A DNA stretch of 64,000 bases, from contig OX597823.1 of the NCBI GenBank assembly GCA_951406725.2, positions 64,046,001 to 64,110,000 of the forward strand, written 5' to 3'. Source of the stretch: Octopus vulgaris (Eukaryota). The notes beneath the pieces were generated by a model that saw only the letters and a program-made list of their open reading frames with translations, was not told where the DNA came from and searched no databases. The position numbers were made by a program, and so were the translations under genes. This document shows, in pieces, positions 29,907 to 40,236 of the stretch (position 1 is its first letter; each line of letters starts with the position of its first letter).

Positions 29907-30454
29907 CCCTTAGTCACAATTAGTGACAATTGAATTTTTCCATTTTGGTTTTATATTACATATAACAGCCTTCGTTATTTTATATACATATATATAATAT
30001 GAGAATTTTTGTCATAAAAGCATATTGTATTTTGACAGAATAATACTATTTAGGTGCATTATGGTTTTTGCAACCTCAATGTTCTGAATTTGAGCCACTT
30101 GCATGGCATCAAGAACAAATATAATTTTCTGTAACCTCAAAGTGACCCATAAAGTAGATGGAAATTCTATAGAATCCCATTGGTTGGATTGTCACTATAA
30201 TTCTAAATGCCATACTGTTTCTGCCTGAGAAATACGTTAAAAGTACATGTTTGCTGAATGCCAAACCACTTAAATCTTTATTCCATAGCAGGTAATACAG
30301 GTAATCAAACAGCTGAATTCTCATTAACAAATGACAGGGATCTACCTGTGGTATTTCCTAAAGATATTGTACTTCGCTAAAAAATTTCCATAACTGTTTT
30401 ATATTTTGTGAGAATATATATATATGTTTCTTTTTGCTAAATTCTCTTATTCAG

Positions 30455-30593
30455 ATTGCCAGAAACGAAATACTTCTTAACAGCCTATCCCAAGACCATC
30501 AGCCTTAGCACTGGCACATGCTTTTATCTGCCAGTCACATTTCATCCACTAGAAGAGAAAGAATACAAAGACAAGATAAAGTTCTCTACAAAT
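30455..30593 (+). CDS. CFAP65: Next coding exon of the CFAP65-like gene (139 nt, phase 2 in, phase 0 out); absent from the ORF track
   Basis: Branch-like ctaa plus pyrimidine tract attctcttattcag|A, and donor ACAAAT|gtatgt. The first A completes the GA|A (Glu) codon from the previous exon. It encodes LPETKYFLTAYPKTISLSTGTCFYLPVTFHPLEEKEYKDKIKFSTN, matching recalled human PPKTKFFFTVIPQPIFLSPGITLTLPIVFRPLEAKEYMDQLWF. Confidence 0.85.
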
Positions 30594-32189
30594 GTATGTA
30601 TTATATTAAAATGGTTCCATTAACTCTTTGTCAAATTGCAAAGAATTAGAATTCCACTGTACTAAACTTGCATATTCATGTATTTATTTTACTTTCATCT
30701 GTTGTTTTCTCTTTTGAGTTTCTTTTTTATGTCATTGTAAATTAAATTGTAAATAAATCTTCTTGTATTGGTCTGAGTCATGGGGTGTCTACCATGACCA
30801 TCTACAACCTCTTGAAAACTTCTGCCAGCACTGCCTCAGCATCATCTTCAACATCTACAGAATTTATTTAACTTTTTATCACCATTGGAATCCCCAAACA
30901 TGTGGGAGTTAACAGTGTAGAAGCCCTTATAGCAACCTTGTAGCTGCTCTGTCCAGTGCTGCTGGACAGAAAACTTTTCTAGAATGGAGAATTAGTGCCT
31001 TCCCAAAATTGGACTGTAAAGCAGCAGACCATGCACTGTCCCTTTTAAATGCTCTGCATTTAAAATTCTGACTGAAGTTGCAAACAAAAGAGTTAATTAA
31101 ATGATTAATAATAATTTTAACAATACTATTAATGCAATTTATCTCATCCTCTCATCTTCAATAAATTCATATATAACTCAAAGCTGATATTTTGATTGTA
31201 TAATGCCTTCTTCAAAGCTTAGAAAAACAATAGCAATAAATGAAGAAATTACAATGAGGAAACAGATGGTCTGAGGCTGTCATTCTGTCATAAAGTCTAC
31301 GACCCAGCCATTGGTATTTTGTTCACATTCCAACCTTCTGTGCAATGGAAAATCGTAGACAAGCTTCTTGTGTGAAGATTCTTACCTGTGTTAAATGATA
31401 TCATATTCTAGTTCAAATGTAAAAATCTAATTTAAAGTATCATTTGCTGTGATTCTTTATCCTTCTCTCTTGAGTTTCTGGAATGTAATAGCAGAATCAT
31501 TATCATATTGGGCAAAATGCTTGGCAGCATTTTTTTTCCTGGCACTTTATATTCCGAGTTCAAATTCCGCTGAGGTTGACTTTACCTTTCATCCTTTTTG
31601 GGTTGATAAAATAAAGTATCAGTCAAGTACAAGTAGTAGTGTGATGTAATTGACTTATTTCTGCCCCTCAAATATTATTGGCCTTCTGCCAAAAATTAGA
31701 AACAAAGTATTTGTATTTCCTGCCAGAATAAACACCATAACTGTCGCTTTTGAGCGAGTATGGCCTGGTAGCATGTATCATGCTTTTGCTAATTGCTTTA
31801 GGTGCCAGTGTAATCATGAGCACACGCAGTGGACCATCCAGAATGTGACAGTTGGATAAAGAGAAAGCTGTACCAATACTAAACTGGTACTCATTTTCTG
31901 TTGAATGGACTGAGAAATGAAGAACCTTGCCCAAGGACACAACAGGTTGCTTGGTCCAGAAACTGAATCCACAAACTTATGATCATGAGGCCTCCAGGCA
32001 AATCAATGTATCAGGCCCTATAATATTTATAGACAGCAAGTCACATTATATATAAATCAGAATTGGGCCCCTAGAATTGGCCCTAGAAATAGCTAAACCC
32101 TACGTTACAACTGTACGTTTTGGTTTTCTTTGATTCATTTAATCATTTAGGATAAACGCTTGTGTACTGAGAGTACTGTTCTACTCCAT

Positions 32190-32800
32190 CTCTGAATGTA
32201 AGAGTGAATATCTCATCAGACAGTGAAGCAACTCTGAAGGTGTTTCAACCCCTGTCACCTTGATATCAGAGCTCCTCAGGGTCACCCAAAAATACTGGTG
32301 ACAAAATTCCCATGCAACAGCATGAGCTTTGTTGAGTCAGATGTTGTAACTCTGGGCCAAATGTTTCTATCATCTACAATCCTTGTTTCTGCAACATTTC
32401 TCCTCTCTTTTGAGCCAGATGTAATGGCATGCTTTCTCAGTGGCTTCAGACAATTTTCTGGCAATATCTTTTGTCTCCTTCATGGCCAGTAAAAGACATC
32501 TGAACATTGACTGAATTCTGGTTCCAACAAATAGCTCTCACACCTATATCTATAGGAAAGCATATTGCCTTTGACCAACTGTTTTCACAGAATTCAACCA
32601 ACTCACTGTATTTTCTATTTTTCATGAGGAAAGTATATTCAATGTTCACTTCCGGGGAATTGTCAACTCAATCATCTTTAGCACTTTATTTTCTTTGTGC
32701 CAGATGACATGTTCAGGTCTTTTAGCCATAATAAGTAGGAAGTGATATTTACCAACAAAGTCAACAGAAACTTCCCAAGACCCCTCTCATTTTGGATCAT
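32190..32800 (-). mobile_element. 3' remnant of a Hero/R2-group non-LTR retrotransposon (restriction-like endonuclease domain plus 3' UTR)
   Basis: The minus strand reads WEVSVDFVGK..KRPEHVIWHKENKVLKMIELTIP/EVNIEYTFLMKNRKYSELVEFCENSWSKAICFPIDIGVRA ... LSEATEKACHYIWLKRE. This matches RPDxVxW..VELTVPWE..K..KY..L...PxEVGxRG..AAExASxWxWLKR, with frameshifts. Confidence 0.8.
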
Positions 32801-33359
32801 TCTTTCTTACAATAATTAGTTTGCAGTGTTCGCCTTCTTTGCAAAACTTTGCAATCTGTGTTCCACTACTTGTGATCTTTTGCTGCTGTTAATATTATTT
32901 CAATTACAAGAATCTTCATTTCAGCAGTAGAATATTGACTTTGGCTGTAATAGGTGTAATTTTGATTGAATCAACAATAATTACTTTGCTTACATAATTG
33001 CATTCGAAACTAAAGATTCATTGACTACAAGGAATATTTCTCTGACTTCTTCATTGTGAATGTGGTTTAAATATTGAGTTATTTCAAACATATTCCTTAG
33101 ATAGCTTTCTTTTCTTCCTTATATTTCCAAAATTTTGATATCCCTTTGATTTCCTTCTAGAGTAAAAAGTATTTTATCTGACCTTTTGTTTTCCCTAACT
33201 GTGAAGGACGGAAATGTCAATGATATGAAAGAAAGATCAAATAGAGTAATTTTTTTTTTATAGATATTTCTAAGTTTTATGTTTGCACTTATATTAAAAA
33301 GCAGAACATAAGCAAGTTGAGATGTGAGAGTAATATGGCATTAAAGACATCAACTGTTC

Positions 33360-33410
33360 TCTGTGTGTGTGTGTTATATATATATGTGTGTATATATGTA
33401 TGTATGTATG

Positions 33411-33473
<63 letters not shown>

Positions 33474-33494
33474 ATATGTATATATGTATATATG

Positions 33495-33531
<37 letters not shown>

Positions 33532-33568
33532 GTATATATGTATATATATATGTATATATGTATATATG

Positions 33569-33643
<75 letters not shown>

Positions 33644-33700
33644 ATATATATATGAATGTATGCACACTTTTATATATACTCATAAATGTATGTGTATATA

Positions 33701-33747
<47 letters not shown>

Positions 33748-33766
33748 ATATATGTATATATGTATG

Positions 33767-33811
<45 letters not shown>

Positions 33812-33896
33812 ATATATATATGTATTTGTATATATGTATATATATATATGTATGTATGTATCTATATATATATGTATATATATATGTGTGTGTATG

Positions 33897-33928
<32 letters not shown>

Positions 33929-34120
33929 TACACATATATAGTCATATATACATATGTATATATACTCATAAATGAGTACACATATATGTATATATACATA
34001 CACACATATGTATATATGTATGCATGTATTTATATATGTATATGTGTGTGTGTTTGCATATACATGTATCTATCTATCTACCTATATACATACATTCATT
34101 CATTCATACACATGCACACA
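33360..34120. repeat. Compound (AT)n/(ATGT)n microsatellite, representative of many similar tracts (e.g. 760-1480 TCTA, 1850-2360 TGTA, 10660-11050, 14250-14570 AAT/GAT, 54430-55310)
   Basis: Directly visible; these tracts produce most of the listed spurious ORFs. Confidence 0.95.
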
Positions 34121-36099
34121 AGATGAAGATATAAGTGTGTTACTAATGATGTATTGACACTTGAAGCAAATGGTGGCTGAGTGATGCCTAAAGTTGTTCT
34201 GTGCTGACAGTGGACTATAACTTTGGTTAAAAATCTTAATACAATATAAAAACAGCTGGTAAAAATAAGCTCTAAGAATACGGGTGTTCACAAGTTATAT
34301 GACAAAATATTGCAAAGGCAGGGCTATTTACTTTAAAGCAAACCTACCCATCCAACTCCTGTCATAATGAAACAGACAGCAAAGATAATCTAGTCCATTA
34401 AAATAATAAATAAATGATTTAAATAAAGCAAATTAATCAATAAAATTAATGGTGGTGCCCCAGCATGGCCACAGCTCATGAGCTGAAACTAAAAATAAGA
34501 AATAAGAAAAAAAAAGATATGTTTGAAAGAATTATTTCCCTTTGACATTAACTATGAAATCTTGTTCCTTTGTCCTCAGAGTTTAACTTTGAATAATGAC
34601 AAGAAGTAGTCAGACACAGCAAGCTCATTATATTATTAGATTTAGCAAACATTACATTGATAGGTTCTGTTGATTGATGGCCATTTTTTTCGCTTACACA
34701 ATACCTTTACTTATTTGCAATATACGGAGAAAAATATTTATTGAGACTATAATTCATATTTTAATTGCTTTCTTGCTTAAACTGATTAGAGAATAAATTG
34801 AAATTAATATCATAAATACAAGATGCTATGATAAAAAAAAAAAATATTAGCGAGACAAAAAAATATTAAGAAGAATCATTGTCTAGACTATCAGGCATGA
34901 TACTCTATGGTATGAATAATTTAGTGGTTTCTGTAGCTGGATTTCGGTTCAAACCCTGCCATTGTTATCTTTTATTTTTGTTTTTTTTTCCTCTAATGCT
35001 TAAAAAAAATTTTTTTCTTGCTTATTGCAACAATCTGTTTCTTTTTTTCATGTTCCATGCCATTCGTCATCAATGATCATGGATCTCCATGCCAAAATTT
35101 GAAGATTTATTATTTTTGTTGGGATAAATTCAAAGATAGTTTCCTTTTTACATTTTTTTCTCTTCCTTTAATTTTTAATATTGAAATTATTAAATGTTAT
35201 TGTAAAATTCATTGTAACATATACAGTGTTGCCTAAAAAAAATGTAGAGATATATTCTAGTGTATATTATAACTCTGTTAACTTATCAATAATTTAATTT
35301 TTAAGTGGCTTTAAGGCAGCAAGCTGGTAGTATTGTTAGCCTGCCAGACAAAATGCTTAGCGGCATTTCATCTGTTTTAATGTTCTGAGTTCAAATTCCG
35401 CCGAGGTTGACTTTGCCTTTCATTCTTTCAGAGTTGATAAAATAAGTACCAGTTGAGCACTGGGGTTCATGTAATCAACGAACTCCCTCCACCAAGATTG
35501 CTGGCTTTGTGTCAAAATTTAGTGGCATCTAATTCATCCCTACCTTCTGAGTTCAAATTCTGCTCTGGTTGACTTTGTCCTTCATCTGACATAAAGATAC
35601 ACGCACATATATATGATGGGCTTCTTTCAGTTGCCATCTACCAAATCTAAATCCAAGGCTTTATTCAGTCCAAGGATACAGTAGAAGACGCTTGCCCAAG
35701 GTGCCATGCTGTGGGACTGAACCTGAAATGATGTGATTGAGAAATAAACTTCTTACTACACAGCCATGCTTCATTCTGGCATGGGATGAACAGATCTGTT
35801 TCAACAGAGTGTCTGACCAACACTTGCAGTTTATCATTATTTAATAAAATACAGACATCATAAGAGGGAATGACCATTCTTTGTTGTCATGTAAGTCATG
35901 TTCTTTACTTTTATGTGGAGATGGGGACAAAGAGAGTGATTTTTTTTTGTCATGTCTGGATGACCTGTCAATCACTGACAACATTATGACATGGAGTGGG
36001 TGGATTTTTAATTGTGCTACTGGTACTAGAGCCGTTCCATGATTGTGTCTCTCAACATTTGTGATTCTTCAGCTTTTGATTCATATGCCCACTCATGAA

Positions 36100-38968: not shown

Positions 38969-39534
38969 ATGGGTTGTCCAGAAAGTTCGTGCCGATTTAT
39001 AGTAGCTTACCTTTCGACTTATTTTAGAACATAGTTGAGTCCATAAAATTGGATTTGACTACACCTCCATTTAGAGCACAGTTTAAGCTATCTTTTCGTG
39101 GAAGAAGGTTTATGTTTCTATAACCTTTGTTAATTCTGTAACCTTTTAAAATAAAAGATGAGAAAGTTCATTTTCGGCACTTGATGCTTTGGGAACCAGA
39201 CAAAAATTGCAGCAGCTCGGCTGGGATGTGTTACCCCGCCCTCCATATTCCCCAGATATTGCTCCTTCAGATTTCCACTTATTCAGGTCTCTGCAGAATA
39301 GTCTTAATGGTAAAAATTTCAATTCCTTGGATGACGTAAAAAGATACCTTGATGAATTCTTTGATCTGAAACCACCTCAATTCTGGGAAGAGGGTATTTT
39401 GATGTTAAAGGAAAGATGGAGATGCGTTGTGCAACAAAATGGTTCATATTTGGTTGATTAAAAATGTAATGGCAAGTATTTATTGACCTTTTTCTTTCCT
39501 TTAAAAATCGGCATGAACTTTCTGGGCAACCCAA
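38969..39534 (+). mobile_element. Internally deleted mariner element with both TIRs
   Basis: TA|atgggttgtccagaaagttcgtgccgattt ... aaatcggcatgaactttctgggcaacccaa. ORF 39189-39461 has LGWDVLPRPPYSPDIAPSDFHLFRSLQN (YSPDLAP motif). Confidence 0.9.
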
Positions 39535-39741: not shown

Positions 39742-40236
39742 GCACATAAAAGTTGCAGTGGTATCACAAGAAAGTTGACAGAGAAAGCAGCCTTTATATG
39801 TTGCAGATATGCAGGTACATTAAACACCAGAAATGTGCAATAAATCAACTCCCTCAGATGTCCTTACAAGTGGTAGACAGTTTCTGTTACTCATGCAATC
39901 AAGTTAGCAGTGGAGGAGATAGTTCTGAAAGTGTAGCTGCTAAAATAAGAATAGGCTGGGCAAAGTTCAGAGAGCTTCTACCTTTGTTGGTAACAAAGGG
40001 CCACTTCCTCAGAGTGAAAGGCAGATTGTATGATGCCTGTATATGGACAACTATGCTACATGGCAGTGAGATATGGGCTGTGACTGCTGAGGGTATGTGA
40101 AGGCTTGAAAGAAATGAAGCTAGTATGCTCCACTGGGTGGATAATGTCTGTGTTCATGTACAACAGAGTGTAAGTGATTTGTGAGAAAAATTGGGTGTAT
40201 GAGGCATCACACGTAGTGTGAAAGAGAGAAGACTGT
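39742..40236 (+). mobile_element. RTE-clade LINE reverse-transcriptase C-terminal fragment
   Basis: VVDSFCY..VSSGG.SSESVAAKIRIGWAKFRELLPLLVTKG..LRVKGRLYDACI.TTMLHGSE.W, with stops downstream. A related upstream piece lies at about 5130-5250. Confidence 0.85.

Follow-up and report, generated by a model that had tools for sequence, protein, structure and literature searches.

A hammerhead-like S-G-C motif lacking a canonical stem II in 3' tails of Hero-like elements of Octopus vulgaris, with predicted RNA cleavage and a predicted circular template

A decayed retrotransposon copy in the window

The window, by which we mean the whole stretch of 64,000 nucleotides of Octopus vulgaris DNA that was analysed, contains on its minus strand a 5'-truncated and decayed copy of a non-LTR retrotransposon (32146..32893), which belongs to a family that we call family A. 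The 5' limit of this copy is approximate: a profile match covers 32764-32138 and homology to another copy reaches up to 32893. Its 3' end at 32146 is the end common to the copies of the family. The tail of the window copy is 22% off the family majority, the median of the family being 17.5%. Upstream of the tail lies a C-terminal restriction-like endonuclease region (32397..32777, minus strand) that was delimited by tblastn and three-frame translation and is broken by stops and frameshifts. This remnant matches residues 1042-1169, that is the C-terminus, of the intact protein of family D of the same genome with 27% identity (tblastn, E 1e-10), and across family A the family D protein is the top-scoring match of the endonuclease remnant at 13 of the 21 loci with a match. 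Elsewhere in the window are two open frames on the plus strand, of which the first (39162-39461) resembles the C-terminus of a mariner/Tc1 transposase and the second (39750-40100) a fragment of an RTE-type LINE. No hammerhead model of Rfam matched positions 30000-36000 at E values up to 10, and the only matches there were to miRNAs, all below gathering scores. A long (TA/CA)n microsatellite at 33345-34126 draws many such sub-threshold matches to miRNA families and, since they are driven by this repeat, we regard the miRNA matches as an artefact.

Family D is young and intact. It has a unit of 3738 nt with an ORF of 1175 codons (L215:4669-8406, with further copies in L216-L234), and its copies are mostly 98-99.8% alike (range 96-99.8%). 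The single ORF codes for a reverse transcriptase (RT) followed by a C-terminal zinc knuckle and a restriction-like endonuclease, which is the layout of HERO-type elements; RVT_1 was found in relatives, Pfam gave no match for the endonuclease, which is assigned by its motif. Flanking sequences vary from locus to locus in family D (20 loci) and also in family A. According to PMC4640811, the HERO clade is mostly without target-site specificity. By this resemblance in domain layout and in lack of target specificity we call the group Hero-like. Named homologues are from lancelet and fish and are labelled uncharacterized or R2DM-like. When proteins were searched with a decayed piece of family A there was no match, and a profile made of eight fragments gave 59 unnamed proteins.

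Wiring of the motif

An earlier note on this DNA had described a decayed hammerhead-like motif, with its strands in an order other than a circular permutation, in the 3' UTR of a retrotransposon that it called Hero-type. The description of the core, its strand order and its place is right, the element being one with a restriction-like endonuclease. The minus-strand letters that it quoted are present at 32261-32206, and the two halves of the core, GAAA at 32246-32243 and CTGATGA at 32219-32213, occur throughout the family. The strands to which the core is connected are different from those proposed, and they extend upstream of the interval. On the minus strand, the order before the predicted cut is a strand of helix Y, hairpin H, a strand of helix X, the stem III extension, a stem III strand and the UH dinucleotide, and the order after the cut is a stem I strand, the partner of X, GAAA, stem III, its extension, the partner of stem I, CUGAUGA and the partner of Y. 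The blocks thus follow each other as S, G, C, and the core letters of the hammerhead are complete.

In the window copy the 5' strand of helix Y (32300..32314) pairs with the strand after CUGAUGA at 4 of 4 proximal and 6 of 9 distal positions, hairpin H (32284..32299, 4 of 6 paired) fills the space between Y and X with zero unpaired bases, and the 5' strand of X (32278..32283) is fully paired with the strand before GAAA (6 of 6, two of them G-U). The first part of block S (32262..32275), which was assigned from family column counts, holds the stem III extension, the 3' strand of stem III and UH, the latter being TC at 32263-32262. Cleavage is predicted between 32262 and 32261, at the very edge of the interval of the earlier note, and the stem I strand 3' of the cut (32254..32261), in which the 'aaggtg ac' of that note is recognised, is paired at 6 of 8 positions with an A-G mismatch at pair 2. 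Block G (32228..32252) consists of the X partner (32252-32247), GAAA, the 5' strand of stem III, a 3-nt bulge and the partner of the extension (32236-32228), and block C (32197..32227) consists of the stem I partner (32227-32220), CUGAUGA and the Y partner (32212-32197). The stem III extension is paired at 8 of 9 positions and core stem III at 2 of 4. Because of the two A-C mismatches in core stem III and the A-G at pair 2 of stem I, the window copy is probably an old relic that is inactive as a ribozyme. The earlier note had also supposed that this copy is dead, and we agree, on account of these mismatches rather than of a loss of UH. A junction reported by our script for the window copy sat in another register and was discarded. 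Folding by a nested method, which cannot model pseudoknots, gave z values of 0.09 for the window copy, -0.08 for family D and -4.8 for L179; it is uninformative here because the fold is pseudoknotted.

The canonical stem II, that is pairing of the strand after CUGANGA with the strand before GAAA, is absent: there are 0 pairs in family D, in a further family of the genome (family B) and in 20 of 20 metagenome relatives, and 1 pair in family A. The two strands pair instead with separate upstream strands, Y and X, respectively, and Y, H and X abut without an unpaired base in families A, B and D. This gives a four-way junction, of which the tandem G-A core pairs would be the fourth arm. The weak stem II of the earlier note was therefore a misreading, as the four-way junction replaces stem II in every lineage that was parsed. 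Stem III, which is closed by the last A of GAAA with the U of UH, has 5-6 pairs in families A, B and D, two of which are changed on both sides between family D and family A, and stem I has 5-8 pairs in these families. Positions 10.1 and 11.1 are C and C in family D and U and C in family B. Thus CUGANGA, GAAA closing stem III, and UH followed by stem I are all found and the stem II feature is not. A hammerhead that lacks the stem II pair beside the core departs from the known consensus, and it might be that it does not cut. The loop in the stem III extension varies. By eye, the majority of family B and the metagenome relatives have a 3-nt bulge followed by tandem G-A and A-G pairs, which may be a kink-turn. 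The extension has a plain 3-nt bulge in family A and a 6-nt bulge in family D, neither with a kink-turn-like loop.

Conservation in family A

The family A set consists of at least 54 distinct copies that came from searches of the animal's own genome, in which the best 40 candidates were scored per search, after removal of 9 duplicate loci. The U of UH is T in 47 of the 48 copies that cover the site and the next letter is C in 28, T in 19 and A in 2; the T at this second position is consistent with decay of CpG. The earlier note had UH missing, which is wrong since TC lies directly 5' of its interval. CUGAUGA is the majority sequence at each of its seven positions in both family A and family B; it is exact in 25 of 53 decayed family A copies and exact in family D. 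Helices I, III, III-extension, X, Y and H, as drawn above, are 80-86% paired in the 53 other family A copies (stem I 85%, Y 83-84%, H 80% and X 80%). A tight S-G-C pattern gave 8 matches in the genome, 7 of them element-like by eye, versus 0 for a reversed control, and so the motif exceeds chance in this genome.

The same 53 copies decide on the register of the stems. The earlier note had paired aaggtg with cacctt as stem III and acag with ctgt as stem I, with UH lost, and both do pair fully in the window copy (6/6 and 4/4); aaggtg/cacctt even occurs in the minimum-energy fold of this copy. This pairing is specific to that copy. In the others the two stems are paired at 149 of 276 (54%) and 109 of 192 (57%) cells versus the 80-86% of the corrected helices, UH is present two bases upstream, and 'aaggtg' is a decayed strand of stem I, not of stem III. 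The register was thus rejected by the family A alignment, and it is hardly credible that this fold, or mere coincidence in a single decayed copy, accounts for the motif.

Covariation between lineages

Since copies decay neutrally after insertion, a covariation signal was sought between lineages, namely family A (54 copies), family B (30 copies), the young family D and metagenome contigs, rather than among copies. The same wiring with other letters is found in the majority of family B and in family D of the Octopus vulgaris genome, and a family C keeps it too, as judged by eye and without counts. Both partners are changed and yet paired at 14 (A-B), 12 (A-D) and 16 (B-D) of 26 helix positions. 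The junction score was matched by 11, 0 and 0 of 5000 shuffles of the upstream 62 nt for families A, B and D, respectively. That family A, the family of the window, has different helix letters and no kink-turn strengthens the case for covariation.

A pattern scan of metagenomes gave 79 loci and 1 viral match. Of these, 24 were chosen by eye as element-like, and 20 were parsed after 4 had been dropped for short flanks. The sequence upstream of the motif matches the element protein in 9 of the 24 element-like matches versus 0 of the 56 others. A stem I of at least 5 pairs is present in all 20 parsed matches versus 0 of 28 distinct other pattern matches, and stem I was absent from the search pattern. 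The letters of stem III were included in the pattern and therefore its invariance says little. With a strict junction script a perfect junction was obtained in only 11 of the 20 (one of them weak, with a score of 9), and 5 of the 28 unrelated matches scored 9-11. In an unfitted alignment of 18 sequences, 87.7% of the cells are paired and double changes occur at 21 of 39 pairs; 0 of 500 shuffles reach the observed value and structures slid along the alignment give 36-47%. Helix X is 73% paired in this alignment, in which one subgroup is misregistered. Alignment A4 omits L149, L191, L035 and the window copy, which were misaligned in A3. Taken together, the RNA structure is almost certainly conserved. 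The earlier note had named a consensus without UH and without covariation as evidence that would speak against it; the family keeps UH and shows covariation, and so its hammerhead idea survives. Its observation and its interpretation are each borne out in part. One metagenome contig (L124:1-3622) carries the motif twice, 3119 nt apart, contains repeats, does not match the element protein, and is possibly a non-autonomous derivative.

Copy starts and ends in family D

Starts of family D copies were sought with patterns in which the second base ahead of a given site must be foreign. Unrelated DNA lies right before the predicted cut in 11 of 17 loci, and foreign DNA was found before the boundary in 3 of 23 at control site +28, in 1 or 2 of 16 at +4 and in 2 of 11 at -6. 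The excess at the cut has a binomial P of 0.0006-0.0012, on the assumption of equal copy numbers at the four sites. The copies that begin at the cut are mostly 118 nt long and finish at the usual 3' end, and target-site duplications gave no consistent signal in 9 of the 11 cut-start copies parsed. Of these 11 copies (within L265-L281), 8 have a T as the last base ahead of the cut, often with AT-rich surroundings, which may reflect a target preference or added bases. In family A, starts at the cut did not pile up: of 30 loci, 7 start near the motif and 1 of the 7 at the cut, in a small and decayed sample.

The starts at the cut could have another origin. The motif may be a hammerhead-derived fold that does not cut and serves as a signal for protein binding or priming, in which case the starts would be places where the reverse transcriptase stalls at a strong pseudoknot. 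LINE proteins bind their RNA at the 3' tail, which is where the motif sits, a stall at a helix boundary is possible, and the canonical stem II is absent from every lineage. We nevertheless find this quite improbable because the catalytic letters and UH are kept across lineages with 36-38% protein identity and few common helix letters, and because the excess of starts is on the exact nucleotide that was predicted. We regard cleavage in intact elements as likely.

The long family D loci, 20 in number, all have their 3' end between +119 and +126 relative to the cut; 6 of them are longer than one unit and seamless, with a 3' piece, then a whole 3738-nt unit and then the tail. A fixed end about 120 nt past the cut together with over-length loci fits a circular template. 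Among the 54 family A copies no over-length copies were found, and no shared sequence was found beyond the family A 3' end except between pairs of loci. Thirty loci span the tail and the 5' UTR (6 of them are common to the 20 long loci and there is one probable duplicate pair); in 25 the copy already begins further upstream, at points that vary among loci, whereas 5 begin between +27 and +96 and 0 at +1. The junction of the tail to the 5' UTR is seamless in the 23 loci that were displayed. In L179, which is of the family B type and from another organism, the tail likewise leads into the beginning of the element's own ORF, an arrangement that a collapsed-repeat assembly could mimic. At L216:3452-8733 a family D copy is preceded, back to back, by the inverted 3' piece of another copy.

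These loci also bear on whether a covalent circle is needed. The motif could cut and the pieces stay annealed via stems III, X and Y while the reverse transcriptase crosses the nick by a jump, or the template could be read-through RNA of tandem copies that stays uncut. Tandem and partial-tandem copies do exist (L215, L217), and crossing of the cut without a scar fits uncut RNA equally with ligated RNA. Penelope-like elements have partial tandems and internal initiation (PMC11167929). On the other hand, linear RNA cut at the front only would give full-length copies that start at +1, of which 0 of 30 were seen, and the over-length 5' pieces vary widely, up to 1556 nt, a variety that a circular template can readily renew, unlike a linear master. 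A mechanism without a circle is therefore unlikely, and a circular RNA template, as predicted from the copies, is somewhat favored.

Proposed mechanism and its significance

The reading that we prefer as the best joint explanation, and which is probably correct, is that the 3' tail of Hero-like elements carries an S-G-C fold on a four-way junction that likely cuts and likely gives a circular template, and that the window copy is a decayed example of it. In this mechanism, the tandem G-A core pairs would stack on the Y/H/X junction in place of stem II. The motif would cut the RNA after GUH, both in front of and behind the ORF, to release a cut-to-cut RNA, and the ends of this unit-length RNA would be joined to give a circle. 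Reverse transcription would start about 120 nt after the cut and go round, sometimes more than once, and RNA that had not been joined would account for the 118-nt copies whose start is the cut. For cutting, joining and rolling the evidence comes from family D, and applying these steps to family A of the window is an extrapolation. The full proposal, namely that Hero-like LINEs have a new hammerhead topology that cuts and rejoins their RNA and that they integrate from the circle by rolling-circle reverse transcription, is in our view evenly balanced between being right and wrong.

If true, it would place hammerheads with a non-circularly permuted order in animal genomes, it would mean that a hammerhead core is able to work without a stem II helix, and a protein-coding non-LTR retrotransposon related to R2 would gain a circular RNA intermediate. 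Because the young and intact family D is in the Octopus vulgaris genome, every step is directly testable. On present evidence the family motif is best described as a variant of the hammerhead class with an S-G-C core that lacks stem II, for which cutting and circles are predicted.

Comparison with known ribozymes and elements

In the titles and abstract beginnings that were searched, where subscription papers and Repbase Reports are thinly covered, no hammerhead is described in Hero or other elements with a restriction-like endonuclease; within the same scope (titles and abstract beginnings) there is neither a four-way-junction hammerhead in a retrotransposon nor a circular template for such elements. 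Ordinary type II hammerheads were seen by eye in viral or metagenome contigs (L114:5001-5080, L129 and L180).

Rearranged hammerheads have already been published, as the earlier note had said: Eckert et al. 2023 (PMC10085705) describes type-SGC hammerheads (HRIMA-1 and variants), says that none of these RNAs is in the genomes of known organisms, and shows with compensatory mutants that their stem II is a true and required helix between blocks C and G. In the literature searched the term 'type-SGC' occurs only in PMC10085705, whose supplementary alignments of type-SGC variants may be relevant to how new the topology is. The Hero-like motif shares with type-SGC the S-G-C block order, the complete set of core letters, stems I and III that cross as pseudoknots, and a short linker that joins the stem I strand to the strand before GAAA. 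It differs in that it has neither a continuous stem II nor a stem I-II interaction helix, with the upstream strands of Y, H and X in their place, and in that it resides in animal retrotransposons. Since the stem II feature fails, we do not file it as a member of type-SGC.

The nearest precedent for the combination of hammerheads, partial tandems and fixed tails is in Penelope-like elements and retrozymes. Both carry conventional type I hammerheads. PMC11167929 describes hammerheads in the pseudo-LTRs of Penelope-like elements along with partial tandems and internal initiation, and bioRxiv 10.64898/2026.07.22.740005 proposes rolling-circle spread for non-LTR retrozymes. The likeness lies in a hammerhead in a terminal repeat, in partial tandems and in a fixed 3' tail by internal initiation. 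The difference is that Penelope-like elements and retrozymes have a GIY-YIG endonuclease or no protein, whereas Hero-like elements are autonomous, with a reverse transcriptase and a restriction-like endonuclease, and have a permuted and split core. With R2 elements, which have an HDV-like ribozyme at the 5' end (PMC3774820 and PMC13580325), the Hero-like elements share a single ORF with a reverse transcriptase and a restriction-like endonuclease and, as predicted here, the processing of their own RNA by a ribozyme. R2 differs in the class of the ribozyme, in its location at the 5' end only, in its linear template and in its rDNA target, whereas the flanks of family D vary from copy to copy.
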